Assembly (NCBI GenBank): GCA_964456445.1
Contig: CAYWBI010000004.1
Coordinates: forward strand, 4,110-68,109
Direction: 5' to 3'
DNA: 64,000 bases
Origin: an uncultured Calditrichaceae bacterium
Lineage (GTDB): Bacteria > Calditrichota > Calditrichia > Calditrichales > J004
Part shown: piece by piece, positions 40,852-64,000 of the stretch
Position numbering within the stretch: the stretch's first letter is position 1
Layout of the letters: every line of letters starts with the position of its first letter
Program-made: the position numbers and the translations under genes
Notes under the pieces: model-generated
What the model saw: the letters and a program-made list of their open reading frames with translations, nothing else
What the model was told of the DNA's origin: nothing
The model's database searches: none

Positions 40852-41274
40852 GCGGTGTTTTATTTAAGACATAAAAATGGTACCAAATTTTTAAATTGTT
40901 TTAATCTTTAATTTATTATAATTATGTTTACAAAATGAAACGTTAACGAAATTGCAAGGCTGAAGCAGAAACAACAACTTTTAGCAGCCAGTAAAGGCAG
41001 CTGACCATCTGTTCGAAGTTCCGTCACGGGTATTCGGTCTAAAAGAATGTACCGGTCTTTATCTTATTAACCTCGAGATGGGCAAAATCTGTGAATACGG
41101 ATTGGACTGACATGGTGTTTTATTTCTGCGTCAATCAATGGAAATCTGTGACAACAAATTTGCTTGCAGGCAAGTAAAAGGAACGCTTGCTTTCGATGCA
41201 GTATGATCAACATTGCCATTATGCGAAACCTAAACAAGAAACAACACATTTATTAAATCCGGTTGACATCTATT

Positions 41275-47250: not shown

Positions 47251-48453
47251 TCAATGAATAGCGATAAGGTCCTTGTTGTCGATCTGCCTGGCAATGCTGC
47301 GTACATAGTCCGGATCATACTTATTTGCGGCATAAAGATGGTTCAATGCCTCATCCCTCCCAAGCGCCTTAAAGGATGTATAAGCAAGAATGTGGCCTTT
47401 TGCCAATCGTGTAAGGGTTGCCTTGTCCAGTTTATTATTTTTTATGCTAAGCGCCGGAACAACCAAATTCATACCGGTTTTTACAAAATCCGGATTTTTA
47501 ATCTTATCATGGTTTTGCAAAAGAATAAGTGGCCAAAGATAACCATCATGATAATGATGCGAAGCCAACTTCCACAAATTATCACCAAATTTTGTATGCC
47601 GGGTTACCTGTTTGTAAACTTTTATTTTTTGCCCGGCAACGGCTTTGGCCGTATGGACAGGGGCTGTTTTCTTAACATTTCCTGACTGGGTTTTTGTTTC
47701 ATTCGCGGGTTGATCTGTTTTACTGGCTACCGTTGGAGCCGGTGCCGGATGATTAACCTTTGCCTGATCCGCCATGATATCTTGTGTATCATCATCGGTT
47801 TGCGTTTGAATATAAAAAAACAGAACGATAAGGATGGTCAGTACAGAGAAATATAATGCCGGTTTTCTAAGCGCCCCGGTGGTTTTTTCCAGCGGAAGGG
47901 ATTTATCCGTGTCCTTCTGATTCAAATCTGATGTTACAGTCCCGGGGCCCCTTGATGAAGGAGAGGCGTTCCCCGCAACAGGCTTTTTATCAACGGCTAT
48001 ATTTTCCGGGCCGGACTTTTGTTCGTTTGTTCCCGTTTCATTTTCCTCGGTAAATACCGTGCTAAAAAACGAACCGCTTATGTCCCTGTCGGGGGTCTTT
48101 TGGGCATGTGCATCTATACCTGAGGCCCGGGCGGGATCGATAAGCTGTGAACGTAAATGGCCGTATCTTTTATTGATTTGCTCCCTCAACGACTTTTCCG
48201 GCTTAAACATAACCTTGCGGTGCGTAGGTATAACAAGTGGCTGCCCTGTGCGGATATTGCGACCGGTCCTTTGTGGCACATCCCTCAGTTTGAAGATTCC
48301 AAAACCACTCAACGTCACCGTGCCATCACGCAAAAGCCCATCACGAATGATAAGCGCCATCTCATTGACGAAATTTCGGGTATAACTGCTTGAGGTATGA
48401 GCGTCCTCCGTGATGGTGGTTATTAAACCGGAAAAAGATATCTTATTATTCAT
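47251..48453 (-). CDS. HU-fold DNA-binding domain - TM helix - LysM-like domain fusion protein
   Basis: aa 1-95 carry the HU/IHF signature GFGIFKLRDVPQRTGRNIRTGQPLVIPTHRKVMFKP. A low-complexity linker follows. The TM helix is PALYFSVLTILIVLFFYI (aa ~198-215). The LysM-like segment is YKQVTRHTKFGDNLWKLASHHYHDGYLWPLILLQNHDKIKNPDFVKTGMNLVVP (aa ~278-333). Confidence 0.7.
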   Translation of the reverse strand: MNNKISFSGLITTITEDAHTSSSYTRNFVNEMALIIRDGLLRDGTVTLSGFGIFKLRDVPQRTGRNIRTGQPLVIPTHRKVMFKPEKSLREQINKRYGHLRSQLIDPARASGIDAHAQKTPDRDISGSFFSTVFTEENETGTNEQKSGPENIAVDKKPVAGNASPSSRGPGTVTSDLNQKDTDKSLPLEKTTGALRKPALYFSVLTILIVLFFYIQTQTDDDTQDIMADQAKVNHPAPAPTVASKTDQPANETKTQSGNVKKTAPVHTAKAVAGQKIKVYKQVTRHTKFGDNLWKLASHHYHDGYLWPLILLQNHDKIKNPDFVKTGMNLVVPALSIKNNKLDKATLTRLAKGHILAYTSFKALGRDEALNHLYAANKYDPDYVRSIARQIDNKDLIAIH

Positions 48454-49286: not shown

Positions 49287-50636
49287 CTACAACAGTTGCG
49301 CGGCCTTGTTTTCTTCACCTGTTTTAACATAAAGCCCGGCCAGGCGTCTGCTGACCTGGGAATTTTCCGGTGCCTGAATATGCAACGCTTCGTAAATATT
49401 GATTGCCCGGTCCAGTTTTCCTGTTTTTATATATAGGATGCCCAGCAGATCCAATACATCCAAACGGCTGGGTGCCTGTTGAAAAGCATTGGTCAGCAAG
49501 CTTTCTGCCCGGATAAATTTGCCGCGTTGTAAAAAAGCCTTGCCCGCTTGCACCTTTAAAGCAATATCGTCCGGCCGATCGGCGATCAAGCCGGCATAAA
49601 GCGCTTCCGCCCTGGGGAAATTTCCATTCATCAGTTCCAGTTCTGCCTGGGCATAATCCAGTTTTTCTTTTCCAAGTAAAACATCCGTGCCTATTTGCCA
49701 GCCATGTATTTGGATGTATGATTCGCTTGTACGAATGGACTCGAGCGCCTTTAGCGCTTTGGAAAATTTATTGCTGTTTTTATATATTTTGTAGAGCAAA
49801 TAATAACCGCCCACCTGCTTCTCTTCCAGGGTTACGGATTTTTCTGCCAGGTCCAGGGCCGTTTCGTTTTGATTCAGATTGAGACAGCTCTCTGCCCAAA
49901 CGTTGAGCAATGTCGCTGTAAGTTCTTTATTAAGCTGACGTAAGGCATAAGCTTTTTCAAAATGAGGCAGTGCGAGCCGCGGTTGATCCATCAGATTATA
50001 TTGTTGGGCCAGGGTGAAGTGGGCATAAGCACTGTTTGGATTTTCACGTACCATCCGTTCCAATAGACGGCCATTCCGCTTGTGTTTCTCTTTGGTAATA
50101 TCCTCTTCCAGCGCATAACCAAGATGGTCAATATGTATCGGCATCCTGCGGCTTTCCACTTTTCCCGGCTGACGGGACATTAACTGCTCATGTATGATCC
50201 CCTTAAAAGATATCCCTTTATGATTTGTAAACAATCGATAGGCGGTACTGATGTGGACGGCAGCATCATCATTCGATGCATTATTGATCTGAACCTGGCC
50301 AATAACCGGACGTTTTTCATGGGGATTTAATTTCTTTAGAAAACCGCACGCATCCGGCGATAATCTTTCATCCGCATCCAGCCATAAAATCCAATCACCA
50401 GTGGCAGGTTTAATAGACGCATTCCGCGCGGCAGAAAAATCATCGCACCAATCAAAACTGTGAACATTGGCACCATATTTTTTAGCAATGGCAACCGTAC
50501 GGTCTGTCGAACCTGTATCAACAACGATCAATTGGCTGGCAACATTTTTAACACTGCGCAGGCAATCTTCCAAAAATCGTTCTTCATTTTTAGTAATCAG
50601 GCAAACGCTTAATGATGCCTCTGACACATTTTTCAT
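49287..50636 (-). CDS. GT2 glycosyltransferase fused to C-terminal TPR repeats
   Basis: LSVCLITKNEERFLEDCL...LIVVDTGSTDRT...FDWCDDFSAARN...LWLDADERL, then about 250 aa of TPR. Confidence 0.8.
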   Translation of the reverse strand: MKNVSEASLSVCLITKNEERFLEDCLRSVKNVASQLIVVDTGSTDRTVAIAKKYGANVHSFDWCDDFSAARNASIKPATGDWILWLDADERLSPDACGFLKKLNPHEKRPVIGQVQINNASNDDAAVHISTAYRLFTNHKGISFKGIIHEQLMSRQPGKVESRRMPIHIDHLGYALEEDITKEKHKRNGRLLERMVRENPNSAYAHFTLAQQYNLMDQPRLALPHFEKAYALRQLNKELTATLLNVWAESCLNLNQNETALDLAEKSVTLEEKQVGGYYLLYKIYKNSNKFSKALKALESIRTSESYIQIHGWQIGTDVLLGKEKLDYAQAELELMNGNFPRAEALYAGLIADRPDDIALKVQAGKAFLQRGKFIRAESLLTNAFQQAPSRLDVLDLLGILYIKTGKLDRAINIYEALHIQAPENSQVSRRLAGLYVKTGEENKAAQLL

Positions 50637-50646
50637 TTACTTCTTC

Positions 50647-52839
50647 CTAATTCATCAAAGGCGTATTGGGTTGCAGGGCATCGATCAGGCGTTCCATATC
50701 GCTCAGGTCCAGGCTATGTTTTGCCGATGAGGCTTTTACCTGGTTGAAGCATTCCAACGCCTTATCGGTATTGCCCATGTACATATCCACAATTCCACGG
50801 ATATACAGGGCGATATAGCTTTGACTGTTGAACCGCAGACAACCATCGGCATATTGCCCGGCTTCGTTGTAGTTATTGCGGGCCAGCTCAATTTGTGCCA
50901 GACGCAGGTATATAATTTCACGTATTTCGTTTGTCAAATTTCCGGTAGGGTTGCGGATCGCGCGTGCCAAAAAAGCGCCGGCCTTATCGAGGTCATTTTC
51001 CGCCTTATAGGCCTCACCAAGCTTAAACAGGGTATAACTATCCATTGGATGTTCAGCCAGTTGTTCGTTAAGCAAACGAAGGTTCCTTTCATTTCTTTGG
51101 GCATTTTTATGCATATAACCAAAATGATCGATGCGCAGGGCGCTATCGCCTAACGAGCCACCAATCCGCTTTATGGAAGGCACAATTTGTTCGTGGATAC
51201 GGTTTTCATAGCATACTTTCTTTTTATTTTGAAACAGCCGAACTTGAAATTCATCCAGATATTTTACCATGTCCTGATCCGGTTGGTAATTTCTTACAAT
51301 TATATTGACGCCCTGATGGCTGCAATCCTGTATAAATGCCCGTACTGTCTTTGCCGAAACAGGTTCCAGGGCTTCATCGGCGTCAAGATGCAGTATCCAG
51401 CGGCCGGTTGCTTTTTCAAGGGCCGCATTACGCGCGGCGGAAAAATCTCCATTCCAGTCATGGCGATAAATTTTATCGGTGTATGCCTGCGCTATTTCAA
51501 TAGTGCGGTCATTTGACCCCGTATCGACAACAATGATTTCTTCACAAACACCGGAAACACTTTGCAGACAGCGTTTAATGTTCGATTGTTCATTTTTAAC
51601 GATCAGACACAAAGTTAACAGTGGCCGTTTAGCCTGTGCTTTTTTACTTTTAGGTTGTAAAATACCCAACGTCTCCCACAAGTCGCCATCGATTTCCCGA
51701 AGATATCGGTCAAAACTATCCGGATCGATATTGGCCTTTTCCATGTAAACATCCAGCTTTTTCATATCCTTCATAAAAGTATTTACATCCGAGTGAGTAT
51801 TATGCAAACGCAACAGTTGATAAAGTGCATCAAACCGGTCATACTCTGTTATGGCCACATGCCGGGGTGCAATGCCCCGCAATAAACAGTGACGTATTAA
51901 ATCCAGACTATATTCATATTCCCCTTTTTTTTCGAGAATACGGATAACCGGTTTCACCAATCGATAATCTGACCAATCGATTCTTTCACCAATCTGTTGG
52001 GCGCCGGAAAGGAACACCCTCTGGCTGTCCTGCACGTTATAGTGATACACCCAGTCACCAAACATTCCCCAGATACCGATAACCGATGCACGTAAGGGCG
52101 GGTTTTCATGCAAAATAAGCGCCGAGGCTTTTTTTAATTCTTTCTCAAAGGAAGTGTTTTTTAAACTTTTAAGGGTCAAAAGGTATTTATATAAATAATG
52201 ATAATCATCTGGCGTTTTCTTTAATGCGTCACGTAAAATAGGGAGGTTACGGTTCAGCTTTTTTAAAGGGTCGTCATAGCCATGATGAAGTAACGTCACA
52301 CCGCTTAACCGGCCCAGCGGATCTGTTATTTGGTGTGCATCGGCATAACTGCTAACAGCATTACCGGGATGCTCATGTATAATCCCCTCATAATAAAATC
52401 CACGGAAATTCCGAAAGAGCAACAGTCGCTCCAGGCCATGGGCTTTCCCCGTCTCATCGACACTCTGCTCCTCTATAAAAAAGGCCAGTTTTCCGGTATT
52501 TTTTAGGATGTCCATCAAGTTTACTGTCTGGTTAACTTTGATTATATGGTCGGCATCTAAGTTAAGCACCCAATTTTTTGTTGCATATTGCAGGGCAAAA
52601 TTTCGGGCAGCGGAGAAGTCATTGCCCCATTCAAAGTAATAAACCCGGGCGCCGAAACTTTTGGCAATTTCAACGCTATCGTCAGTCGAACCCGTATCCA
52701 CAATGATTATCTCATCCACATATTCACGGGCCGCCTGCAGGGATTTCGGTAGATTCTCCTGCTCATTCTTAACGATCATACATAGCGATATCCCGTTTGA
52801 AACTGTATTCATTGGCACATCCTTATATAACTTCCACAC
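50647..52839 (-). CDS. Double GT2 glycosyltransferase with C-terminal TPR repeats
   Basis: Two modules of the same subtype. The first is ISLCMIVKNEQENL...IIVDTGSTDDS...FEWGNDFSAARN...LNLDADH. The second is LTLCLIVKNEQSNI...IVVDTGSNDRT...HDWNGDFSAARN...LHLDADEAL. A TPR tail follows. Confidence 0.8.
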   Translation of the reverse strand: MWKLYKDVPMNTVSNGISLCMIVKNEQENLPKSLQAAREYVDEIIIVDTGSTDDSVEIAKSFGARVYYFEWGNDFSAARNFALQYATKNWVLNLDADHIIKVNQTVNLMDILKNTGKLAFFIEEQSVDETGKAHGLERLLLFRNFRGFYYEGIIHEHPGNAVSSYADAHQITDPLGRLSGVTLLHHGYDDPLKKLNRNLPILRDALKKTPDDYHYLYKYLLTLKSLKNTSFEKELKKASALILHENPPLRASVIGIWGMFGDWVYHYNVQDSQRVFLSGAQQIGERIDWSDYRLVKPVIRILEKKGEYEYSLDLIRHCLLRGIAPRHVAITEYDRFDALYQLLRLHNTHSDVNTFMKDMKKLDVYMEKANIDPDSFDRYLREIDGDLWETLGILQPKSKKAQAKRPLLTLCLIVKNEQSNIKRCLQSVSGVCEEIIVVDTGSNDRTIEIAQAYTDKIYRHDWNGDFSAARNAALEKATGRWILHLDADEALEPVSAKTVRAFIQDCSHQGVNIIVRNYQPDQDMVKYLDEFQVRLFQNKKKVCYENRIHEQIVPSIKRIGGSLGDSALRIDHFGYMHKNAQRNERNLRLLNEQLAEHPMDSYTLFKLGEAYKAENDLDKAGAFLARAIRNPTGNLTNEIREIIYLRLAQIELARNNYNEAGQYADGCLRFNSQSYIALYIRGIVDMYMGNTDKALECFNQVKASSAKHSLDLSDMERLIDALQPNTPLMN

Positions 52840-55800
52840 CGGAATAATTTTTAAAACGTTCCTGTAATTGCAGGGCGTCGGAATTTACCGGATCAAGGGA
52901 TAACACCTTATCTGCAAATTTCCCCGCTTCAGCCCATCTTTCTATTTCGGAATAAAAGTTCGCCATAATTAATAATGTTTCAATATCGTCCGGATGTTTA
53001 CCGAGGATATGATCAAATGTCTCGATTCCGTTTTTATAATCTCCTGATTCAACCAATGAAAGCCCATAATTACGCTGTGCTTCCAGATAACCTGGATTTA
53101 AGCCAATGGCCTTTGCAAAACTGCCAAGGGCGTTCTTCAGCTCTCCATTTTGAAAGTAAATAATACCCAGCTGGTTGTAAGCCACTTCAAAATCCGGCCA
53201 TTTTTCAATCAATTTGTTCAGGGTGGTGATGGCCCTAATTTGTTGTTCTTTGCGCACAGCGCACAGGGCCTGGCCCATCAGCGCCTCGGGCGTTTCCTGC
53301 AGGTTAAGGCTTTCCTTAAAACAGATTTCCGCCGCTTCTTCCTTAAAGGCGTTGAGCAATTCGTAACCTTCATCGCTTTTTTGCTGCCAGGAGGAACGGT
53401 CTGTGCCGTTTTCCGTGCCCCTACACAGCTCCAGCATTTCGTTTACTTCGGGGTTTTCCGGATCGATGCTTCGGGCTTTTTCCAGATAAAGCGCCGCTTC
53501 TTCGTTCCGGCCGGCTTCAAGGTTAAAACGGGCCATCATGACCAGGGCAACCAAATCATTCTCATTGGTGGAAAGACAAGCCACAAAAACCTTGACGCCT
53601 TCTTCATACCGCCCGGTTTCTACCAACACCTGACCCAGGTTATGATGGGCATCCAGAAAAGATCCGTCCAGCTTAACGGTGTGTTCAAAATATTTCAGCG
53701 CAGTTTCAGGATCGCCCTGCTGCGCCTTGACCACACCAAGCTGGTTCAATACCATTGGATTATCCGGAAAATGCAGGTGCGCCTTTTGCAGGTATAGTTC
53801 GGCATTTTCCAAATCGCCCTGGGCCTGGCAACTAAAAGCCATGCCCACCAGCGCCTCTCCGGACAGCGGGTTTTCGTTCCAGACTTGTTTGTACAGTTCC
53901 ATTGCCCCCGCGGCCTCACCTTGTTCCAGCATACGGGAAGCCTGTTCAATCAAAGCCGGGTGAACTTTATGCAACGGATTCTTTATTTCCAACAGTTCGT
54001 CATAATCCACTTCCGGCCATTTTTTACGGAAGATTTTCTCATTGGCCTTCAGCGATTCCAGCAAGTCGATCTTGTTGGCTTTAAAGGAGCTATGACCATA
54101 ATGGTGAATATAGGTGCCGTCATGCACCATCAGCGCATAACCGGCGGCACGGATTTTAAGACTGATATCATCGTCTTCAAAATTGCCCAGGCCATAGCCT
54201 TCGTCAAAACCCTGCACCTGCTCATAAACAGTCCTGCCGGTCAACATGACAAAACCGGCCAACCTACGGCGCGGGGTAACTTCGCCCTGGTGTTGGGCGC
54301 GCCAGTTATCGGCAAAGGGATAAAAGCCCGCATCATCGGTGTAGGGTATGTTTTTCAGTATTTGCATGCCGCTGGCTTTGTTGGTAACCGCGCCGACCAT
54401 ACCGATGCGCTCATCCCGGTCAAAGGCGTCGATCAAATCCTCCAGCCAGCCATCGGCCACCAGGACATCATTGTTCAACAGACAGATATAGTCGCCACCG
54501 GCCTTAGCCACACCTTGATTGTTCCCGGCGGAGAAGCCGCGATTTTCACTGTTGTAGATAGCACGCACCCCATCATTTTGAGCGCTAAAAGTTTTTAGCC
54601 AATCGACCGTGCCGTCGGTTGAGCCGTTGTCCACAAAGATCAGTTCAAATGGATAGGCCGTGTGGGCCAGAACGGAAGCCACGCATTTACGGGTCATTTC
54701 CAACGCATTGCAGGTAAGCATGATAATGGAAGCCAGTGGGCGCCCGTCTTCTTCCGTCCGTGTGTCCCCACTATTGGGTTCGTACAACTTAATGGGCGTA
54801 CCGTTCAATTGTGTAGCGCTGCCATCGGTCTCTATACGAAAATCCAGCGGCACCTTGCCCAGCCATTTTTCATGCAGGCGATTGATATTTTCCGCTACTT
54901 TTTTAAAGCGTTCCACCCCGCTCTTTGATTCATGATGGATCACCTCGCTGTGCGGCTGGTAAACCACATCGTACCCGGCCTTCCGCAGACGGAAACAAAG
55001 ATCCACGTCTTCGTAACCGTTCCAAAAGCCTTCGTCAAATCCGCCCACCTGTTCAAAGGCCGTGCGGGGCGCAAGCAAACAGGCGGCGGTAACGGCCTGA
55101 AGCGAGATGATCAAATTGGTTTGCGGGTGGTCATGAGGCTGCCCGACCAGGATATTTTGGGCCAAAAGCGGATCGCCGTTCTTCAGGTCTTCCACAATGG
55201 CCACCCCGGCATGTTGAATGGTCATATCCGGATAGAGTAATTTACTGCCCACCGCGCCCACACCGTCATCGCTGCGCACAATGGCCAACATGGCGTCTAA
55301 CCAGTGAGCGCGGGGCTCGGTATCGTTGTTCAAAAACAGCACATACGGCGCCTGCGTGGTTTTTACAGCCTGATTGTTGGCAACGGCAAAACCGGAATTT
55401 TGCCTGTTGGAGATTACCTTTATGCGTTTATCCTTGCTGGCCTGTTCCTTCAGCCAGGTAGCCGTACCGTCGGTGGAGCCGTTGTCCACCACGATCACTT
55501 CATAATCGATGCCCGTGCTTTGCTCATTTACAGCTTTCAGACATTTTTGGGTATATTCCAGTTTATTGAAGACCGGAATAATAAGGGCCACTTCCGGAGC
55601 TGCCTGGGCTGCGATCACCGGCTCCCGTGGCGCTTCACGATCAAGCAGCGAAAAATAGGCGTCCCGCCATTGATGCAAGTTTTTACTTAACGTGTATTTT
55701 TCCGCCACTTCCTTCTGGGCGTTTTCAGCTATCTGAATGCGCTTTTGCGGATTATCGATCATCCATTTTATCGCACGGAACCAAGCTTTGTTGGTATTTT

Positions 55801-58800
55801 CCACCAATAATCCGGTTTTTTTATCCTGTACGAATTTGGGATAGGCGGCCAGTTTGGAAAAAACCGCCGGGATACCGCAAGCTGCATATTCCAGCCATTT
55901 GATATGGGACTTGGCCTTGTTAAAAGGCGTGTCGTCCAGTGGCACCAGGGCCAGATCGATATCCATGCCCTGCAGTTGCCGGGCATATTCAGGATAAACC
56001 GGTGTAAATTGCGGTCCGCGTACAACATTCGGCAGCTCCATCAGTTCGGGGATTTCATTGCCCCACAGCACCAGTTCCACCTTGTCTTTGTAAGCATTAA
56101 GAATTTTTATCAGCGGTTTGGCGATGGTCCGCAGATCGAGCTGATGGGTCATGGTCCCGGCAAAGAGTAGGCGTACCTTTTCACCACTTTGCACAGGTGC
56201 CTTAAAAGGCCACAGTTGTTCATCGATCACATTATGCAAAACACGCACATTATCGTTTTTGTCCCGGCAGTAGCGGGCCATATAATCGGTGGAGACGGTC
56301 ACCAGATCGGCATTTTGAATATACGCGTCCAGTTGCGGACGCATTTGGTTATAAAAATTATAGGCAAGATGTGTTTCCGGCAGCGTCCAAAAGGCGTCGT
56401 CAAATTCATAGACCAGCTTAACGCCAAAGGCATCGAGATACTTTTTAAGTCCCTCATATTTGTAGAACCCCGGCATATTGCGTTGCAGGATCAGGATATC
56501 CAGGTTTTCTAAATTGACGGTATAACCATTTTCATCTTTGGCGCTTAACTGCTGATAATCAATCCATCCGGCGTCATGCAAACGACGCAACGGTGCATCG
56601 AGGCGTATCAGAGGACAGGCACGATCAACAGGATCGGCCGAGAGAAATCCAATTCGCGGTTTATCCGATTGCTTGTCTTTATGTTTGAGCGGGGCTGCTG
56701 TTGGACCTTCACAAAAGAAATCATACCAGTACGCCGCATCTTCAGCAATGGTTAAAATCTCGGGTATCCGGGCGGCGCGCGCGGCAATGTCCTGCGGATG
56801 TTTTACGATTTTCTGCATGATTTTTAACAGCGCCCCACCATCTGTTGGCGGAAACAACCAACCGTTTTCCCCATCGGTCACCACATCCAGAATGCCCCCT
56901 ACCGCACCTGCAATGACAGGTGTTTTAAGCATAAAAGATTCCCTTACCACCATGGAATAGGTTTCGGTCAGCGAGGGTACAACCAGCACGTCAATCCGGC
57001 TGAGTATTTGCGGCAGGTCTGCCGGCTGATAAACACCCATGGTGCGTAAGCGGGGATCATCTTTACAGAATTCATGTAATTCATTTTCAGTCTGTGGCAT
57101 ATCCTTGCCCCAGATTTCCAGTTCGGCATCCATATCAGAGCCTTTAAAGGCAACGAGCAGGGTGGCCAGGTTTTTCAATTTGCCAAAGGTACCCAAAAAC
57201 CCAAAGACCGTTTTTTTATGTGGCCCGGAATTGCTAATGGGCGTTAGAGCCGGCAGGCCAAGCGGATGTACTTCTACCCTGTCGGCGGAGATGTAGCCGT
57301 TTTCCACAAAACTGTTTTTCACAAAGGTTGATGGTGCCGTTATCTTTTCTGCCGCTTTTAACAATTCCCGTGCGCTTTGTGCACGCATGCCCATTTGTTC
57401 TGTAACCATTTGCAGTTGGTTGCCCTGCGGCGCCTGCTTGTATAAATCAAAAAAACAAGAAGCGCATTTATCCTTTCCCGGACCGGAACAAAGAGTGCTT
57501 TTTTCGTCGATGTAAAAATGGTTACGAAAACACATCAGGGTAAAATCATGCAGCGTCACCGCATAGGGGATATTGTGTTTGGCCGCAATTTGCCCCACAT
57601 CAAAAGGGATATTCTTGATATGCTGAAAGTGGATATAACTGAAATCATTATGCGTCAACAATTCATCAAACATCTGTGTGAGGATTTCCCCACCCGCGCC
57701 CAGAAAATCATTGTATAAATTGAGGTCATACCACAGTTGCAGGGTGGTAATCCCCTTGTACACGCGCAGACGCAGCTCCGGCGTGGCCTGGTCTTCATCC
57801 AAATGCGGAAATAATACATGGACGGTCAGGCCTTTTTGTTGCAACGCTTTTACATAGTTGAAAACATAATTTTCCGTGCCGCCAAACCAGTATGGTGGAA
57901 AATTATGGACCACGACCAGGATGTTTTTTTTACCTGCTTCGGTGATGGTCATTTTTGGGGGCAGGATCATTTCACCCGGGAGCTCTTTATAAGCCGCTTT
58001 ATACTTTTGCCGCACCTGTTTGGCTTCGATCAACGGCGCGTTGCCACGGCGGGAAACGGTTTCATCGCTCAGATAATAGAGACCGATAAATTCCTTAAGA
58101 TGGATAAAGTCATGCTTTAATGCCACGCGCAACCAAAATTCCCAGTCGGCAGCGGATTTCAGCGAGGTATCGAAATAACCCAACTCTTCATGCAGGCTTT
58201 TGCGCCATACGGGATGCGGCCCGATGTAACACCAGGAATGCATCGTCCGCCGGTCAAAATCGGGCCAAACCAAATCCTGGCTGCCGTCGGAGCTGTTATC
58301 TTCAAAGGTTTCATTGGGCACGGTGGTAACCAGAGAATCACCATAGGCCAGGGCCTTATCCGGGTGGGCGTCAAGCAAACCGGCCAGTTTTTCGAGGGCG
58401 TCGGCACGCAGCCGGTCGTCCGTATTGGCGTTGGTCACATAGGGCGCCCGGGCCATTTTGATACCCCGGTTCCAGGATTCGTACACTGTTTCCCGTTGAT
58501 CGGTGCGCACATAGCGGATATGATCCTGTTTTTTCTGAAACTCTTCTACAATTGCTTTTTCATTTTGCGGGCTATGGGCGTCTATGACGATGATTTCCAG
58601 TTGGCCTTTTGTATAAAGGCTTTGATTTACCAGTCCCTCAAGACATCCGCGGATAAATTTTTCCGAATTATAGGTGGAAACAACCGCCGACACCCGATAA
58701 CTGTTAGCGGCCGGTTTTTCCGAAGACACGGAAAACGCAGGCGTTTTTGACCGGTAACTTTCCACCAGCGCGGGGAGGGCTTTCAGTTGATTTGGCGGCA

Positions 58801-60679
58801 ATTTCAGCGCCTGCATCATTTGATCCACTTCCGCGTCCGTAGCGGTTAAAGGCTCCGTCGAAATTGTCTTCAAATCGCCCAGAAGATCGTTGTACTCATA
58901 ACCTAAGGCGGCAAGAATTCCGGGCCCGAGCGTGTTTAGGTACACCTCCGCCAGGAGTTTGTATTGCGGATCGGCAAAGGTCTTTTTCCATTTTTCCAGA
59001 CTGTCTGCCGAAGGCCGATCGTGCCGTTCAACACCAAGCGGATCGCCCATACTGCCCTTAGGCGCGGGACGCCCGCCATAATTCAACATCCCGTCCCGAT
59101 AATCGATGCCCAGTTCCATACAAAGTTTCGATACGGCTTTTTCCGGTGTTTCTATCAGCTCTTCATAACGCACTACCGAAACGGCTCCGGGATTTTTACG
59201 CATAAAATCAGCCAAAAGCACCGGCGCCAGCAGAAGATCGTTTCGGTGCAGTCCCAGACGGTTCCAGTCCCGCCCGATCCAGGTGGTTAAAATAGAAGCA
59301 AGTACGGCCAGCGGATTGCGCAGCAATAGCACCCTTCCGGCCTGAGGCAAGAGTTCCATCAGTTCGGGCAGGATATGATAATAGCGCGGGGTTTTATCCA
59401 GGAAAAGCTCCCGGCCGCTGTTCTGCAGGGCGCGCCCGTACCAGGTGTGGGCCATGGCGCGTAAACCATCGAGATAGTCTTCCCGCCCGTTGGGCATGTT
59501 GTCCATAAAATCCTTTAAACCGATTTGGGCGTCCACCGCACTGTATTCACTTTGCAGCCCCTGCTCTTTTAGGGCATAGAGCGGATGGAGCATGATCCAG
59601 GGTTCGGCCACGGTGTGCACTTTTGGATTTCCGGCCAGGATACGTTGAAGCAAGGTGGAACCGGCCCGCGGCTGAGAGATGAGAAAAATCAGGTTTTCAC
59701 CGAGGTACTTTTCAACACTGTTGTTTTGCGCTTTCAGTGCAGGGTTTATTTTTTGCCGGTCTTGTTTTTCCATGGGTACATCCTTTTGGACGGGTGCATT
59801 GATATCATTGAGGTTTAGTTGTTCGGGATTTATTTTACCAAGTGCGCCAAGATGCACGAGTAAGGAATTTAACTCAGAAAGGACATATTTCTGCTCGCCG
59901 ATGCTGCGCTCTTGTAACAGGTGCAGGTTTTTCCGCATGACCATGAGAGCGGAAGCATAGAGATTGTCATTCTGTTTGTGATGGATACCTTCGCGATGAT
60001 CGCGGTAAAAAACCGTTTTGGCGCCGGAATAAACCACGGGATATTTAGATGCCATATTTATTTTAAGGTCCCAATCCACATGTACACTTATGGATGGATC
60101 GCCATAGCCAACCTTGCGCATAGCGGCCGTATCCATCAATTGGTTACGAAAAAGACTCCGGCGTCCTTTAAAAAAGTGCTTGGCGAAAGCCGCCACAAAA
60201 ACTTCGCCGGAAGGCGGATCAGGATCGCCTTTTTTATGCCAAACATCTTTTATGTCCCCATTTGCATCAACTATGGTCACATTGGAATAGGCTACTTTGG
60301 CACGAGTGTTTTTTTGCAAAACCTTCCATTCCATCTCCAGTTTTTCTGGATGCCAATAATCATCACCATCGATAACCGTAGTCCAATCACATGTTACCTG
60401 ATCCTTACCAAATTTGCCATTAGCGATATGCCCGATATTATTCTCATGACGGAAAACACGAAACAATTTAGGATACCGTTTTTTATATTTGGTTATGATT
60501 TCCCAGGATTTGTCACTCGAGCAATCATCACATACTATAATCTCAGATGGTTTTAGTGTTTGTTTGATGATGCTTACCAGGCATTGATCAATATATTTCT
60601 CAAAATTGTAAGAAAATACGACAACACTGATAAGTGGTTTTTGATTGCTTACTTTTTTTGGGAAGGCTTTCTTTCGCAT
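52823..60679 (-). CDS. 2,618-aa multidomain glycan-modifying enzyme: GT2 - sulfotransferase - GT2 - GT-B - GT-B - GT2 - GT2 - TPR
   Basis: Uninterrupted ORF. GT2 signatures: ISVVVFSYN/DDCSSD/DGDDYW; VSAVVSTYN/IDAHSP/NTDD; VALIIPVFN/VDNGSTDGT/LNNDT; ASIIMLTCN/VDNGSTDGT/LNNDV. Sulfotransferase-like motifs are SQPRAGSTLL and LLLRNPLAVLAS. GT4-like motifs are ILVVVHNFPPYWFGGTENY ... SLTETYSMVVRESFMLKTPVIA. The C-terminal ~380 aa are TPR. Approximate nt boundaries are given in the findings. Confidence 0.85.
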   Translation of the reverse strand: MRKKAFPKKVSNQKPLISVVVFSYNFEKYIDQCLVSIIKQTLKPSEIIVCDDCSSDKSWEIITKYKKRYPKLFRVFRHENNIGHIANGKFGKDQVTCDWTTVIDGDDYWHPEKLEMEWKVLQKNTRAKVAYSNVTIVDANGDIKDVWHKKGDPDPPSGEVFVAAFAKHFFKGRRSLFRNQLMDTAAMRKVGYGDPSISVHVDWDLKINMASKYPVVYSGAKTVFYRDHREGIHHKQNDNLYASALMVMRKNLHLLQERSIGEQKYVLSELNSLLVHLGALGKINPEQLNLNDINAPVQKDVPMEKQDRQKINPALKAQNNSVEKYLGENLIFLISQPRAGSTLLQRILAGNPKVHTVAEPWIMLHPLYALKEQGLQSEYSAVDAQIGLKDFMDNMPNGREDYLDGLRAMAHTWYGRALQNSGRELFLDKTPRYYHILPELMELLPQAGRVLLLRNPLAVLASILTTWIGRDWNRLGLHRNDLLLAPVLLADFMRKNPGAVSVVRYEELIETPEKAVSKLCMELGIDYRDGMLNYGGRPAPKGSMGDPLGVERHDRPSADSLEKWKKTFADPQYKLLAEVYLNTLGPGILAALGYEYNDLLGDLKTISTEPLTATDAEVDQMMQALKLPPNQLKALPALVESYRSKTPAFSVSSEKPAANSYRVSAVVSTYNSEKFIRGCLEGLVNQSLYTKGQLEIIVIDAHSPQNEKAIVEEFQKKQDHIRYVRTDQRETVYESWNRGIKMARAPYVTNANTDDRLRADALEKLAGLLDAHPDKALAYGDSLVTTVPNETFEDNSSDGSQDLVWPDFDRRTMHSWCYIGPHPVWRKSLHEELGYFDTSLKSAADWEFWLRVALKHDFIHLKEFIGLYYLSDETVSRRGNAPLIEAKQVRQKYKAAYKELPGEMILPPKMTITEAGKKNILVVVHNFPPYWFGGTENYVFNYVKALQQKGLTVHVLFPHLDEDQATPELRLRVYKGITTLQLWYDLNLYNDFLGAGGEILTQMFDELLTHNDFSYIHFQHIKNIPFDVGQIAAKHNIPYAVTLHDFTLMCFRNHFYIDEKSTLCSGPGKDKCASCFFDLYKQAPQGNQLQMVTEQMGMRAQSARELLKAAEKITAPSTFVKNSFVENGYISADRVEVHPLGLPALTPISNSGPHKKTVFGFLGTFGKLKNLATLLVAFKGSDMDAELEIWGKDMPQTENELHEFCKDDPRLRTMGVYQPADLPQILSRIDVLVVPSLTETYSMVVRESFMLKTPVIAGAVGGILDVVTDGENGWLFPPTDGGALLKIMQKIVKHPQDIAARAARIPEILTIAEDAAYWYDFFCEGPTAAPLKHKDKQSDKPRIGFLSADPVDRACPLIRLDAPLRRLHDAGWIDYQQLSAKDENGYTVNLENLDILILQRNMPGFYKYEGLKKYLDAFGVKLVYEFDDAFWTLPETHLAYNFYNQMRPQLDAYIQNADLVTVSTDYMARYCRDKNDNVRVLHNVIDEQLWPFKAPVQSGEKVRLLFAGTMTHQLDLRTIAKPLIKILNAYKDKVELVLWGNEIPELMELPNVVRGPQFTPVYPEYARQLQGMDIDLALVPLDDTPFNKAKSHIKWLEYAACGIPAVFSKLAAYPKFVQDKKTGLLVENTNKAWFRAIKWMIDNPQKRIQIAENAQKEVAEKYTLSKNLHQWRDAYFSLLDREAPREPVIAAQAAPEVALIIPVFNKLEYTQKCLKAVNEQSTGIDYEVIVVDNGSTDGTATWLKEQASKDKRIKVISNRQNSGFAVANNQAVKTTQAPYVLFLNNDTEPRAHWLDAMLAIVRSDDGVGAVGSKLLYPDMTIQHAGVAIVEDLKNGDPLLAQNILVGQPHDHPQTNLIISLQAVTAACLLAPRTAFEQVGGFDEGFWNGYEDVDLCFRLRKAGYDVVYQPHSEVIHHESKSGVERFKKVAENINRLHEKWLGKVPLDFRIETDGSATQLNGTPIKLYEPNSGDTRTEEDGRPLASIIMLTCNALEMTRKCVASVLAHTAYPFELIFVDNGSTDGTVDWLKTFSAQNDGVRAIYNSENRGFSAGNNQGVAKAGGDYICLLNNDVLVADGWLEDLIDAFDRDERIGMVGAVTNKASGMQILKNIPYTDDAGFYPFADNWRAQHQGEVTPRRRLAGFVMLTGRTVYEQVQGFDEGYGLGNFEDDDISLKIRAAGYALMVHDGTYIHHYGHSSFKANKIDLLESLKANEKIFRKKWPEVDYDELLEIKNPLHKVHPALIEQASRMLEQGEAAGAMELYKQVWNENPLSGEALVGMAFSCQAQGDLENAELYLQKAHLHFPDNPMVLNQLGVVKAQQGDPETALKYFEHTVKLDGSFLDAHHNLGQVLVETGRYEEGVKVFVACLSTNENDLVALVMMARFNLEAGRNEEAALYLEKARSIDPENPEVNEMLELCRGTENGTDRSSWQQKSDEGYELLNAFKEEAAEICFKESLNLQETPEALMGQALCAVRKEQQIRAITTLNKLIEKWPDFEVAYNQLGIIYFQNGELKNALGSFAKAIGLNPGYLEAQRNYGLSLVESGDYKNGIETFDHILGKHPDDIETLLIMANFYSEIERWAEAGKFADKVLSLDPVNSDALQLQERFKNYSGVEVI

Positions 60680-60689
60680 ATCAATTTCC

Positions 60690-61583
60690 TTAATCTATAA
60701 ATGAAAAATCATATCCATAAGACTCATAAGCATTTTTCAGTTGATATTTTTCAAAAAAATATTTGAATACTTCTTTTTGCCATTCGTTAAAATGCTGATA
60801 TCGGGCAGATGCATCTGTTTTATTTTTATCGGATTTATGTTCATTGACCACACCGGTTCGAAATACCTTTCTTAAATATATCTCGTCAACGGAAAGACGC
60901 CCGTTCGTAAGTTTCGCTATAATCCCACTCAACACATCAGGATTGTTGGTCACCTCTTCCATTTTTATCGCGCCCAGATAATTATAAGCGTTTATGTTTT
61001 TTACGATATCATATGCATCAAGGTCTTTACGCAGGCTGCCTAACACAGCAGAAGCACCAATAAAGGCAAGGTTCTCAATATCTCCCGGAAAAAAATCATA
61101 CTTCAGCGCGAGCTTGTGTATAAATTCCCGGGCCTCATTTAACACTTTTCCCAGTGTCCAATGCAGCTCGTTCAAGTCATAGCGAAATAGTGATTTAAAT
61201 TGTCCATAACCGCTCCAAACCAGAGAAACCGGATGGCGCACAAGGTTCATGACTGTGTAATTTTTCTTATTTGGACCAAAACGTTCCCACAGATATGGGA
61301 GATCGCGCATTCTTAACACATGGACAGAACCATAAAACTTTCCATTTCCCATTTTTTCGATTTGTTCATACTTTGCATCCACGGTATCAATGCTCCGGGA
61401 TAGATAGCCTTTATGCAACGCTAATAAATTTGCGCGCAGACTCTCATCGCTATTCATCCCTCTTTCATTCGCGGGGATGTTCCGTGCGCTATGGCTGCAA
61501 ACAATCTCCGGATGGAGATTAAGCGCGTAGGCCAGCCAGTTACTTGCGCTCCAGCCATGCGAGGTTATGATAAAATGGTTCAT
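60690..61583 (-). CDS. Sulfotransferase-fold-like protein (tentative)
   Basis: N-terminal FIITSHGWSASNWL resembles a 5'-PSB loop. NLVRHPVSLVWS resembles the 3'-PB (RxP...S) motif. It is AT-rich, at about 23-33% GC in the two hand-counted lines (60721-60840). Confidence 0.4.
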   Translation of the reverse strand: MNHFIITSHGWSASNWLAYALNLHPEIVCSHSARNIPANERGMNSDESLRANLLALHKGYLSRSIDTVDAKYEQIEKMGNGKFYGSVHVLRMRDLPYLWERFGPNKKNYTVMNLVRHPVSLVWSGYGQFKSLFRYDLNELHWTLGKVLNEAREFIHKLALKYDFFPGDIENLAFIGASAVLGSLRKDLDAYDIVKNINAYNYLGAIKMEEVTNNPDVLSGIIAKLTNGRLSVDEIYLRKVFRTGVVNEHKSDKNKTDASARYQHFNEWQKEVFKYFFEKYQLKNAYESYGYDFSFID

Positions 61584-62509
61584 AAATATTTCTCCGCATA
61601 GCCAAATCCCGAAGCTCCGAAACCATTGCCATTATAAAACATGTATAGTTTATTGCCCATTTTATACACACTGGGATATGCGACCATCTCCGAATCCCAT
61701 CCGTGTTGAGACGGGACAAGGCCGGCCAGATGATCCATGCGCTTAAAGCGGATGCCATCCATGGATTCCGCGTATCCGATCCGGTAAGAAGATTTTTTTT
61801 GGGTACGATAATCCTTTCGTCCTCTAACCGAATACCACATTTTATACGTGCCGTTGTCCTTCAGCACAGTCGGGCAGGCAATACCCCCTTCCCCAGGTTC
61901 CAGACCAACGGAAGTGAGGCCTTCACGACGCCAGGATTTACCATCCGAGGATTCGGCATATTTTATTTCGTATGCCGGTTCCATAATTCCATCAATTTTA
62001 TCCCAGCCAAGATATGACATATACCAGGTACGCAAACGTTCGCCCTCGGTCATCAGGGCCTGGCACGAAACGGATACCGGGTCACAGCTGTTCCTGTCCA
62101 TGATTGGACCGGCAGACGCCTTTTTAAAGGTACGCCCATCCTCACTGATGGCCAGCCCCAAGGCGGTCCGATAACGAGCTGTGTTGCCCGTATTCCACCC
62201 CACATAGTAAAAATAGGTTCGGTCATGATAGCGGATAACTTCCGAAGGCATCACACCGGAATCATCAAAGGTACCGGCAGGGCCCAATTCTAAAATGGGC
62301 GTTGGATGCTCATATAATACCTTCGCCGGATTGCAGGCATCTACCTCAATAAACGATGTCCGTGTCCGGTTTTTGTCATCCCTCGTTCCATAATAAATAC
62401 GTAAAACATCTTCCCCGACCGGTTCCACAATTGGAACCTGGGCATGGGTCAATGTCCACGCATGATTACCATTGACACAAAAAATGCGGCCTTTTTTAAC
62501 CCAGCTCAT
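61580..62509 (-). CDS. Five-bladed beta-propeller glycosidase-fold protein (GH32/43/68/130-like superfamily), function unknown
   Basis: Repeated blade-like segments: W...H...P, RIYYGTRD, YFYYVGW, LGLAISEDG.TF, YAESSDGKSW, YAESMDGIRF, YMFYNGNGFG. This is typical of uncharacterised propeller proteins in glycan clusters. Confidence 0.5.
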   Translation of the reverse strand: MSWVKKGRIFCVNGNHAWTLTHAQVPIVEPVGEDVLRIYYGTRDDKNRTRTSFIEVDACNPAKVLYEHPTPILELGPAGTFDDSGVMPSEVIRYHDRTYFYYVGWNTGNTARYRTALGLAISEDGRTFKKASAGPIMDRNSCDPVSVSCQALMTEGERLRTWYMSYLGWDKIDGIMEPAYEIKYAESSDGKSWRREGLTSVGLEPGEGGIACPTVLKDNGTYKMWYSVRGRKDYRTQKKSSYRIGYAESMDGIRFKRMDHLAGLVPSQHGWDSEMVAYPSVYKMGNKLYMFYNGNGFGASGFGYAEKYL

Positions 62510-63492
62510 AGCAGTCCTTCCACACGTTCCAGGGTATTGCCGGTTGAAACCATCTTCCCGGAATATTCAACAGTCATTTCGGCCACAGCATATCCTATAT
62601 CAATGGCTGGCACCGTTTTCATTTTCCTTCTCCATCTCCCCGTATCAAGCACAAAGGAGTTTTCATTTTCACGTGGGGCCCGATGATAAATATTAATACC
62701 GCCGCCGAGACTTTCATTTATCATATTCGCAATTTCATCAAGCGAAGGACTGCTCCAGCCAACATTGAACACTTCAAACGGTAACAATCCTTTTGTATTA
62801 GTAAGCAATTCCATGACAACGGCAGCAATATCCTTAACATGGATTTGCGGACGACGCTGTGCACCGCCCCATACCGATATAGATTTTTTTTGTAGGCTAT
62901 CCAGGATAAAACGATTAACGATAAATTCTTTTTTCATACGAGGAGAATAACCGAATGCCATGGCCAGCCGTAATATCACGACCGAAACAAAACCGGATTT
63001 ATACGTATTCAAAATCTTTTCTGCCTGCCATTTGGATTGGGAATAAAGCTCAGCGGGATTTGGCGACAATTGTTCGCTTAATCGATGTCTATAATCATTG
63101 CCATAAACACCAAAGGTTGAAGCAAATATGATTTTTTTACAAGTACCTTCTGCACTGAGGCGGACAAATTCCCGGAACCCTTCAACATTCACATCATAAG
63201 TATGCTGCGGCGCCATTCTCCCCGCACGGCCATCGGACACGCCGGCAAGGTAAATGACGGTTTCCACATCCCTGAGACTTTTATGGACTATCTCCGTATC
63301 GCGGATGTCGCCGCTGAGGAACGTAAAATTATTTGTATTGTTATTTAAGCTTACAGGCAAATATGCCGGCGGCCTCTGGTCAAGAATGGTTATTTTGTAT
63401 CCCCTTTGATAAAGGGAATCTGCAAGGATGCTTCCGATATATCCGGCGCCGCCCGTGATCAGGATACGATCGCCGCTATTCATTCTCATCAT
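62506..63492 (-). CDS. NAD-dependent epimerase/dehydratase (extended SDR)
   Basis: Rossmann motif ILITGGAGYIGS. The catalytic YSQSK gives Y-x-x-x-K. It shares a 4-nt overlap with the downstream gene. Confidence 0.85.
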   Translation of the reverse strand: MMRMNSGDRILITGGAGYIGSILADSLYQRGYKITILDQRPPAYLPVSLNNNTNNFTFLSGDIRDTEIVHKSLRDVETVIYLAGVSDGRAGRMAPQHTYDVNVEGFREFVRLSAEGTCKKIIFASTFGVYGNDYRHRLSEQLSPNPAELYSQSKWQAEKILNTYKSGFVSVVILRLAMAFGYSPRMKKEFIVNRFILDSLQKKSISVWGGAQRRPQIHVKDIAAVVMELLTNTKGLLPFEVFNVGWSSPSLDEIANMINESLGGGINIYHRAPRENENSFVLDTGRWRRKMKTVPAIDIGYAVAEMTVEYSGKMVSTGNTLERVEGLL

Positions 63493-64000
63493 CCCAGTAG
63501 CCGTTTTTTGAAATTAATCCATAATAATCGTTTCGGGTGACGCCTACCACAATTTTATCCCAAAAGCGATTTTTTCGGAAATAATAGTTACGTTGTCTGC
63601 CCTCTTCCACCCAGCCACATTTCTTAAGATAAACTGCAAGAGAAATTTTATTATACTCGATCATGGAACCATCAAGCCGTTCCAATCCAAGTTCATCAAA
63701 CGCATAGCGCATAACAGCCATTATTGTATCTGTCCCATAGCCCTTGCCGCGTATATCTTTATCACCAAGCATCATACCATGAAAGGCATTCCGGTCTTTC
63801 CAATTGATATTTACAAGATTTGCGGTACCAATGATGCCCATGTCCGGGGTTTCTATGGCAAATCGTTGATCCGCAGAGGCAGGCGATAAATTTTCAAACC
63901 ATTTTTTTTGATCGCTAATAGATATCGGGAAGTGCCAGGAGGCTAATAGCGGCCAGATTTTCGGATCATTTGCCCATTGATGCAGTATTTCCAAATCGCT
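63476..64000 (-). CDS. GNAT-family N-acetyltransferase (RimJ/RimL-like), 5' end probably outside window
   Basis: ...ILHQWANDPKIW...FAIE...IGTANLVNINWKDRNAFHGMMLGDKDIRGKGYGTD... The track 'M' at 63994 is a TTG, and the frame stays open to base 64000. Confidence 0.75.
   Translation of the reverse strand, partial: SDLEILHQWANDPKIWPLLASWHFPISISDQKKWFENLSPASADQRFAIETPDMGIIGTANLVNINWKDRNAFHGMMLGDKDIRGKGYGTDTIMAVMRYAFDELGLERLDGSMIEYNKISLAVYLKKCGWVEEGRQRNYYFRKNRFWDKIVVGVTRNDYYGLISKNGYWDDENE

Follow-up and report, generated by a model that had tools for sequence, protein, structure and literature searches.

A giant glycosyltransferase-sulfotransferase fusion in a flagellar-locus glycosylation island of an uncultured Calditrichaceae bacterium, a candidate enzyme of flagellin glycan assembly

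The giant open reading frame and its modules

The window analysed here, a stretch of 64,000 nucleotides from an uncultured Calditrichaceae bacterium (NCBI GenBank assembly GCA_964456445.1, contig CAYWBI010000004.1, positions 4,110 to 68,109 of the forward strand), contains a giant open reading frame (ORF) on the minus strand at 52823..60679, which starts with ATG, runs through 2,618 codons with no internal stop to a single terminal stop and is preceded by a ribosome-binding site (AAGGA) 8 nt 5' of the ATG. An earlier reading of the letters of this DNA (the sequence-only reading) had proposed that the ORF codes for seven independent catalytic modules and a tail of tetratricopeptide repeats (TPR). 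When the translation is cut into eight pieces near the boundaries given in that reading, and each piece is scanned separately against Pfam, all seven catalytic modules and the TPR tail are recovered above the curated cut-offs, in the order GT2, sulfotransferase, GT2, GT4-type GT-B, GT-B, GT2, GT2 (GT, glycosyltransferase), followed by about 380 residues of TPR, and the boundaries proposed are off by no more than a few tens of residues. The Pfam gathering cut-offs are 23.3 bits for Glycos_transf_2 (PF00535) and 27 bits for Sulfotransfer_3 (PF13469).

From the N-terminus, and always on the minus strand, module 1 (59780..60679, residues 1-300) is a GT-A/GT2 domain with the motifs DDCSSD and DGDDYW (PF00535, 99 bits), and module 2 (58760..59779, residues 301-640) is a sulfotransferase of the type that uses 3'-phosphoadenosine 5'-phosphosulfate (PAPS), having the 5'-phosphosulfate-binding (5'-PSB) motif SQPRAGSTL and the 3'-phosphate-binding (3'-PB) motif LLLRNPLAVLAS (PF13469, 89.9 bits). 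Module 3 (57965..58759, residues 641-905) is a GT2 domain with the motifs IDAHSP and NTDD (PF00535, 87.2 bits). The two GT-B domains are module 4, of GT4 type (56720..57964, residues 906-1320; Glyco_transf_4, PF13439, 44.9 bits and Glycos_transf_1, PF00534, 75.9 bits), and the divergent module 5 (55625..56719, residues 1321-1685; Glyco_trans_1_4, PF13692, 42.1 bits and Glyco_trans_1_2, PF13524, 41.6 bits). Two further GT2 domains share the motif VDNGSTDGT, which is combined with LNNDT in module 6 (54785..55624, residues 1686-1965; PF00535, 102.7 bits, and Glyco_transf_7C, 29 bits) and with LNNDV in module 7 (53975..54784, residues 1966-2235; PF00535, 112.5 bits). The C-terminal TPR array (52826..53974, residues 2236-2618) consists of two blocks, matched by TPR_2, TPR_19, TPR_14 and other TPR families.

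Module 5 is the weakest-supported module, its Pfam matches covering only the C-terminal half. Its AlphaFold2 (AF2) model, based on an 11-sequence alignment (predicted local distance difference test, pLDDT, 89.6; predicted template-modelling score, pTM, 0.88), has a complete GT-B fold and matches, over both Rossmann halves, the GT4-type GT-B enzymes BshA, PglA, GlgM, PimA and MshA (TM about 0.69, E about 1e-14), and the count of seven modules therefore stands. In this module R183, G188, K270 and E277 are invariant, the latter two being located within an LEY..G.P segment. For module 4, a sequence search against the Protein Data Bank (PDB) matches GT4 structures. Over all modules such searches find only generic GT2, GT4 and sulfotransferase relatives, from which neither donor nor linkage specificity is assignable, and the per-segment Pfam scans (E<=1e-3) find no Maf-type transferase domain (MAF_flag10).

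The conservation of the motifs has been read from an alignment of eight proteins, being the giant protein and seven colinear orthologues (2,641-2,902 residues, 45-59% identity). Every motif quoted in the sequence-only reading is found, with conservation in those orthologues that carry the module. The GT2 motifs DDxS/DGDD, IDxxSP/NTDD and VDNxSxDG/LNND(T/V) are near-invariant, with the exception of P0008, which has GGDD in module 1; the module 1 motifs are kept in six of the seven orthologues, P0005 being without module 1. Near-invariant in 8 orthologues are also the sulfotransferase motifs SQPRAGSTL and RNPLAVL(A/S)S, which we take to be PAPS-binding, as is established knowledge for this family. 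Module 3 is the most conserved module (44% invariant columns) and the TPR array is the least conserved part (9%). The modules are mutually divergent, with identities of at most 30% (as found for modules 6 and 7, which are 30% identical), and they are therefore old, diverged units and not decaying copies, in agreement with what had been claimed for the GT2 modules; recent internal duplication as their source is rejected on the same grounds. With the DxD-type, PAPS-binding and GT-B motifs being conserved at 45-59% overall identity, all seven catalytic modules look active, and the multi-step assembly of a defined, possibly sulfated glycan, as proposed before, is the natural reading of these modules, the processive, template-like course suggested in the sequence-only reading being conjectural.

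The composition of the giant gene is a mosaic, the GC content at third codon positions (GC3) being 0.41 in module 1, which resembles the upstream gene, and 0.51-0.62 in the other modules. Module 1 is also the least conserved of the catalytic modules. The mosaic GC3, the lesser conservation of module 1 and its absence from P0005 hint at N-terminal module exchange.

An identical protein of 2,618 residues is found on three independently assembled contigs (JGI 3300023548, 45 kb; Logan SRR9849936, 13.6 kb; NCBI, 73.5 kb). Considering also the seven colinear orthologues, chimeric assembly of the giant gene is very unlikely and has been rejected, and the ORF of the sequence-only reading is confirmed as real. 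That the ORF might be an artefact of assembly or a fused pseudogene without activity is an idea to which we assign almost no weight: the GC3 of module 1 (0.41 versus 0.51-0.62 in modules 2-7) could in principle mark a junction, and nothing else has been found in its favour, whereas the identity of the protein in three assemblies, the retention of the motifs by the orthologues, the lack of internal stops and the sharing of the module 1/module 2 junction with orthologue P0002 all argue against it. Neither a signal peptide nor a transmembrane helix is present (the maximal hydropathy over 19 residues is 1.64 and lies inside the Rossmann cores), and the giant protein should therefore be soluble and cytoplasmic. 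Membrane anchoring is rejected, as the hydropathy shows no hydrophobic segment.

Homologues of the giant protein and neighbouring genes

A homologue search among 5.8 billion protein clusters, followed by the mapping of the eight modules onto the matches, identifies 119 other proteins of 1,446-3,651 residues, nearly all of them with the same GT2, sulfotransferase and TPR ingredients, from sources named as Caldithrix, Desulfobacterales, 'Deltaproteobacteria', Thiogranum and other Gammaproteobacteria, Methylomirabilota, Verrucomicrobiae and Acidobacteriota. The sulfotransferase module is present in 113 of these 119 homologues; the next catalytic module after it is a GT2 of the module 3 type in 84, and a GT2 of the module 1 type precedes it in many. 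The common thread is a core of GT2, sulfotransferase, sometimes TPR, and GT2, after which variable numbers of GT2, GT-B and TPR units follow. At least seven catalytic modules are detectable in 18 of the homologues, the maximum being nine (in one protein). The fusion had been called unusual in the sequence-only reading, which is correct in the sense that seven modules are at the high end of the family, although the window's protein is not unique in this respect. Seven modules are thus no one-off but the top of the range in a family that is real, widespread and as yet uncharacterised. Of 1.84 billion cluster representatives, 960 belong to the sulfotransferase clade at E<=1e-30, when stand-alone and fused proteins are both counted.

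Most of the close orthologues (P0003-P0008) have an insert of about 250 residues, which is a second sulfotransferase-like module. In the three inserts that have been read (P0003, P0005 and P0006; loci L003 and L004) the motifs PKAGTN and R(H/D)P(A/R)DV.VSHARY are found. In P0003 and P0006 the insert separates module 1 from module 2, and in P0005 it is found close to the N-terminus. By its motifs it is predicted to be a second fused sulfotransferase, absent from the window's protein, which would give eight catalytic modules in the orthologues that keep module 1. In two loci of Verrucomicrobia a second large ORF, coding for 1,627 or 1,573 residues, is located just upstream of the giant homologue (L013, 5095-9978; L007, 5249-9970); in the copy of L013, which is the one scanned, a B12-binding radical SAM domain is accompanied by methyltransferase domains and by a region with weak similarity to polysialyltransferases.

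Every gene between position 49287 and the end of the window has the orientation of the giant gene. Downstream of it, two genes code for further proteins combining GT2 and TPR. The first (50647..52812) codes for a GT2-GT2-TPR protein of 721 residues when starting from the ATG at 52812 (730 residues from the GTG at 52839), of which the second GT2 is GmaR-like, and the second (49287..50636) codes for a GT2-TPR protein of 449 residues, with an N-terminal GT2 followed by TPRs. TPR arrays are therefore seen on all three glycosyltransferase proteins of the locus. For the GT2 domain that precedes the TPRs in both downstream proteins, GmaR is the best solved relative, followed at about 1e-20 by SunS, which glycosylates peptides, and a relative: residues 394-585 of the 721-residue protein match the GT domain of GmaR with E 3.3e-33 (SunS, 1e-20), and residues 8-198 of the 449-residue protein match it with E 1.8e-30 (SunS, 3e-20).

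Upstream, the 297-residue protein (60690..61583, minus strand) has no match in Pfam or NCBIfam, and its more than 120 homologues, which occur in Flavobacteriaceae, Alteromonas, Francisella, Halomonas, Thalassospira and others, are all annotated as 'hypothetical'. Its AF2 model has a pLDDT of 92, and the top 30 fold matches of this model are PAPS sulfotransferases, at low TM (0.35-0.5). With the invariant P-loop-like CHGWSAS and the RHPVDLVWS motifs of the family, the protein probably belongs to a divergent sulfotransferase-fold family without a profile. The adjacent 309-residue protein (61580..62509, minus strand) is co-conserved beside the giant gene in L003, where it is 69% identical, and in L018. 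Its match to GH130 is weak (PF04041, 33.8 bits; 58.8 bits versus a cut-off of 450), C-terminal and beta-1,2-mannobiose-phosphorylase-like. Further upstream, still on the minus strand, are the genes of an NAD-dependent sugar epimerase/dehydratase of the short-chain dehydrogenase/reductase (SDR) type (62506..63492, 328 residues, from profile scans) and of a GNAT N-acetyltransferase (63476..64000), of which the 5' end is cut by the window end and which matches the PseH model with 59.6 bits (cut-off 93.1).

The locus L001, which is the JGI copy of the window's contig with the identical giant protein, reaches 9 kb further upstream. It has the full-length GNAT gene (189 residues) and adds genes for an FkbM methyltransferase, a DegT aminotransferase, a FemAB-like acyltransferase and a stand-alone sulfotransferase. 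The island thus contains genes for a modified amino sugar (SDR dehydratase/epimerase, DegT aminotransferase, GNAT acetyltransferase) and accessory modifiers (the FemAB-like acyltransferase, the FkbM methyltransferase, the stand-alone sulfotransferase and the 297-residue sulfotransferase-fold protein). The aminotransferase is DesI/PseC-like, at 331 and 240 bits, below the equivalog cut-offs. No complete nonulosonic-acid pathway is recognised with NCBIfam, the aminotransferase and the acetyltransferase being under the PseC and PseH cut-offs. The combination of the SDR, the DesI/PseC-like aminotransferase and the PseH-like GNAT loosely suggests an N-acetylated 4-amino-4,6-dideoxyhexose. These sugar genes recall the modified viosamine on the flagellin of Pseudomonas syringae (PMC3927599), identity with which is not claimed. 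In the NCBIfam scans of the giant protein and its neighbours the equivalog matches are far below cut-off, except for FlgL and the FkbM-domain model.

Elsewhere in the window, a Type ISP restriction-modification enzyme of 1,055 residues (Type_ISP_C and N6_Mtase; 30601-33768, minus strand) is encoded in the stretch of lowest GC content (0.36-0.37 versus 0.45 overall), which suggests that it is a horizontally acquired defence gene. A protein of 400 residues (47251-48453, minus strand) combines a DNA-binding domain of the HU type at its N-terminus with a weak match to LysM, which is an unusual HU architecture; in L001 it is preceded by a separate HU gene of 96 residues. Large proteins of the secreted type are a C25 gingipain-like peptidase of 1,334 residues (41263-45267, plus strand), a DUF5666 repeat protein (10768-12774, plus strand) and an S8 subtilase of 1,373 residues (23224-27345, minus strand). 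The peptidase and the DUF5666 repeat protein end in FlgD_ig-type domains, which resemble the C-terminal signals of type IX secretion. Such proteins are in keeping with a host of the FCB group (Calditrichota-like).

Flagellar linkage and the proposed function

L001 ends, 9 kb upstream of the giant gene, in the last 178 residues of an FlgL orthologue, which is 58% identical to the FlgL of L003; the full-length proteins of L003 and L004 match TIGR02550 (FlgL) with 179 and 171 bits, respectively (cut-off 127.2). The cassette of the window is co-directional and begins directly after flgK-flgL, just beyond the window end. The same arrangement, flgI/flgJ-flgN-flgK-flgL followed by sugar genes, the giant gene and the GT2-TPR gene or genes, is seen in L003, L004, L006 and L018. 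In all 12 context look-ups, which include eight more distant giants chosen on long contigs, the giant protein or its homologue adjoins flagellar genes, and this is seen in several lineages. In four of the distant loci (those of P0082, from a Thiogranum metagenome-assembled genome, P0036, P0058 and P0102) the order is flgK-flgL-[island]-giant-fliC-flaG-fliD-fliS-fliT-fleQ, and in the other four (P0027, P0040 of Desulfobacterales, P0094 and P0052) the giant gene is at most two genes from flagellin-FlbT-FlaF. In these eight loci no more than a few genes separate the giant gene from a gene for flagellin, and in four of them it is directly upstream of fliC. The genes of flagellin and/or FliD also flank relatives on contigs of Verrucomicrobia (L009), Ignavibacteriales (L011) and Acidimicrobiales (L015). 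The position in or adjoining a flagellar cluster is therefore conserved, L006, L009, L011 and L015 adding further cases.

The flagellin genes beside the distant homologues (L019-L026) are short, coding for 271-287 residues where the gene is intact, and these flagellins probably have the core domains only. That a large glycan substitutes for the missing outer protein domains of flagellin is a speculation from these lengths alone.

By its position and content the locus is a flagellin glycosylation island, and a glycosyltransferase of the type acting on flagellin is represented in it by the two downstream GT2-TPR genes, which match GmaR by sequence similarity only. We consider it likely, with good reason for some reserve, that the giant ORF codes for the central enzyme of this island, such that the GmaR-like enzymes would start an O-glycan on flagellin and the giant protein would extend and sulfate it. 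This O-glycosylation would occur in the cytoplasm before export, because the multi-enzyme is soluble, the sugar genes come without lipid-carrier machinery, the partners are of the GmaR type, TPRs are present on all three proteins and the flagellar linkage is near-universal. As the gene lies within a glycosylation island of a flagellar locus, with flgL upstream and two GmaR-like genes downstream, the probable acceptor is flagellin and not a free or lipid-linked oligosaccharide.

In the proposed mechanism all steps would take place in the cytoplasm, ahead of flagellin export by the flagellar type III system. The GmaR-like GT2-TPR enzymes would attach the first sugar or sugars to serine or threonine residues of flagellin, and the giant protein would then use its TPR tail to dock with flagellin or with the partner enzymes. 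Its six GT modules (four inverting-type GT-A/GT2 and two GT4-type GT-B) could lengthen the chain with different linkages, and the PAPS-dependent sulfotransferase module could add sulfate. The fusion of the modules would hold the successive active sites beside a substrate that is only briefly available. The TPR tail is best read as a docking domain for substrate or partner, given that the TPR domain of GmaR, which adds N-acetylglucosamine (GlcNAc) to the flagellin of Listeria, has been proposed to recognise flagellin (PMC9638930) and that the TPR domain of FlmG of Caulobacter is necessary and sufficient for flagellin binding (PMC7591256). We infer which molecule is the acceptor, how initiation and elongation are divided among the enzymes, in which order the modules act, and that the sulfate is placed on the glycan rather than on the protein.

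The solved relatives of the GT2 modules bring in another explanation, in which the giant protein is a cytoplasmic multi-domain synthase of a surface polysaccharide (O-antigen, capsule or exopolysaccharide) that is built on a lipid carrier and exported elsewhere, its flagellar neighbourhood being coincidental. In the PDB searches, the chondroitin synthase K4CP (PDB 2z86) is the best solved match of three of the GT2 modules and near the top for the fourth, and the other solved relatives are heparosan synthase, the N-domain of TagF and SpsA. A multi-module organisation is described for O-polysaccharide assembly dependent on ATP-binding cassette (ABC) transporters (PMC11231755), the relative P0096 is labelled 'O-antigen biosynthesis protein' by one source, and a weak match to an ABC-2 permease is seen downstream in L007. 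On the other side, no flippase (Wzx), polymerase (Wzy), ABC exporter, priming phosphoglycosyltransferase or oligosaccharyltransferase is found among the called genes of L001, L003, L004 and L018, a Wzm/Wzt-type exporter and a priming enzyme linked to the giant gene, and a ligase, being likewise absent from the four annotated Calditrichota-type loci; all 12 look-ups are linked to flagellar genes, in several lineages, glycosyltransferases of the GmaR type, which act on protein, share the operon with the giant gene, and all three glycosyltransferase proteins bear TPR arrays. A polysaccharide synthase is, in our judgement, unlikely.

The position of the island after flgK-flgL in the Calditrichota-type loci, with no adjacent flagellin gene, would also fit an enzyme that acts on other proteins picked by the TPR array, for example hook-associated proteins, pilins, an S-layer protein or secreted cargo of the type IX secretion system (T9SS). 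TPR-glycosyltransferases can modify pilins as well (PMC9306852), and the window codes for several large secreted proteins with T9SS-like C-terminal domains. Two observations nevertheless make such targets improbable, namely the close proximity of the giant gene to a flagellin gene in the eight distant loci, including its position directly upstream of fliC in four, and the fact that the closest solved relative of the downstream enzymes is a flagellin-specific transferase.

For the sulfotransferase module the closest solved structures are the OLS (2e-12) and CurM (6e-11) sulfotransferases, which act on small molecules linked to an acyl carrier, and the module also matches the NoeE model, with 82.9 bits, well under the cut-off of 500. 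These similarities would be expected if the product were a sulfated oligosaccharide that is free or attached to a small molecule, for example a glycolipid or a signal of the Nod-factor type, in which the sulfotransferase acts like NoeE/NodH. The locus is, however, without lipid or acyl-carrier machinery, and such a product would leave the flagellar synteny and the GmaR-like partners unexplained, which makes it a very improbable one; like the artefact considered above, it has little support.

Several points weigh against flagellin as the acceptor and against the assignment of the giant protein as such. Its GT2 modules resemble the polysaccharide-type GT2s of chondroitin synthase and heparosan synthase, and their likeness to GmaR is weak, module 7 being the only one that matches the GT domain of GmaR (E 8.2e-6), no better than generic GT2 matches. 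No flagellin gene is present in the window or in the Calditrichota-type loci, where the island follows flgL and where some other protein of the flagellum or the cell surface could be the acceptor. Within the available flanks of L007, L008, L010, L013 and L014, several of which are short contigs, there is no flagellar gene; in L007, CheA is encoded nearby and the weak permease match downstream is to ABC2_membrane_2. The Verrucomicrobia loci L007 and L013, inspected as possible counter-examples and having no flagellin in their flanks, neither support nor refute the model. The family of the 297-residue partner protein occurs also in Flavobacteriaceae. Flavobacteria are generally non-flagellated, and parts of the cassette are therefore generic sugar modifiers. 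The glycan, its sulfation and the enzyme activity of the family members are all predictions.

Extending the flagellin glycosylation model from this locus to the family, we tentatively put forward, as a conjecture that may well turn out otherwise, that the giant GT2-sulfotransferase-GT2-(GT)n-TPR proteins are a previously undescribed, widespread class of flagellum-dedicated assembly lines, which would assemble long, sulfated O-glycans in the cytoplasm, directly on flagellin, the conserved GT2-sulfotransferase-GT2 core setting a sulfated stem and the swappable downstream modules generating strain-specific diversity. Flagellin glycosylation is known mainly from pathogens, in which it is known to involve single-domain transferases and mostly short glycans. 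The loci examined here are from Calditrichota, sulfur-oxidising Gammaproteobacteria, Desulfobacterota, Verrucomicrobiota, Ignavibacteriales and Acidimicrobiales, and, if the conjecture is true, many environmental lineages would invest 2-3.6 thousand residues of fused enzymes at flagellar loci, the product being a complex, probably sulfated coat on the flagellar filament. Sulfation would thereby join the chemistry of bacterial flagella. In the searchable literature no link between a sulfotransferase and bacterial flagellin glycosylation has been found, sulfated flagellin glycans appearing only in papers on archaeal flagella and S-layers, and no relevant paper has been found on giant TPR glycosyltransferases at flagellar loci or on flagellin glycosylation in Caldithrix. 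The family would further provide a natural model for fused GT modules acting sequentially on a protein substrate, and a concrete function for more than 100 proteins annotated only as 'glycosyltransferase' or 'sulfotransferase', and the 297-residue protein flags a sulfotransferase-fold family without a Pfam model.

Comparison with known systems

Module 2 shares its fold family and the conserved 5'-PSB and 3'-PB motifs with the Sulfotransfer_3 enzymes CurM/OLS (PDB 4gbm and 4gox) and NoeE. The substrates of these enzymes are different, CurM/OLS sulfating a beta-hydroxyacyl-ACP and NoeE a Nod-factor fucose, and module 2 scores far below any equivalog cut-off.

The multi-domain GTs of ABC-transporter-dependent synthesis are known to need a lipid-linked primer and a nearby-encoded ABC exporter, and they usually have two or three modules. 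Like the giant protein, these GTs of O-polysaccharide and capsule synthesis have several GT-A/GT-B modules in one soluble or peripheral cytoplasmic polypeptide (for example PMC11231755), as also seen in the bi-domain K4CP. In contrast to these systems, the four annotated Calditrichota-type loci of the giant gene encode neither a priming enzyme nor an ABC exporter.

Among the protein glycosyltransferases, GmaR of Listeria monocytogenes (PMC9638930) resembles the products of the downstream genes, being a cytoplasmic protein of GT2 and TPRs that acts directly on flagellin; the 449-residue protein has the same arrangement of an N-terminal GT2 followed by TPRs. Unlike the giant protein, which has seven catalytic modules, GmaR adds a single GlcNAc by means of its one catalytic domain and is also an anti-repressor, and the giant protein's own GT2 modules are only remotely GmaR-like (8e-6). 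FlmG, the pseudaminyl-transferase of Caulobacter crescentus (PMC7591256), is modular like the giant protein, combining a flagellin-binding TPR domain with a glycosyltransferase domain, and it acts in the cytoplasm before export, as proposed for the giant protein. The genes of FlaF and FlbT, which are named in the work on FlmG (PMC7591256), also flank several of the giant homologues. FlmG differs from the giant protein in having an N-terminal TPR domain and one GT-B domain, which transfers a nonulosonic acid, and the two are likened by their architecture.

The flagellin glycosylation islands of Pseudomonas and Enterobacteriaceae are known to use separate single-domain transferases. They are variable islands in the flagellar cluster, beside fliC and flgL (PMC4875605), and four of the loci of giant homologues share with them the flgL-[island]-fliC layout; the viosamine island of Pseudomonas syringae (PMC3927599) contains, as here, amino-sugar synthesis genes together with glycosyltransferases. 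The locus of the giant gene is thus of a kind that is already known. What is new here, and differs from these islands, is that a single chain carries seven to nine fused catalytic modules and that sulfotransferases are a constant component.

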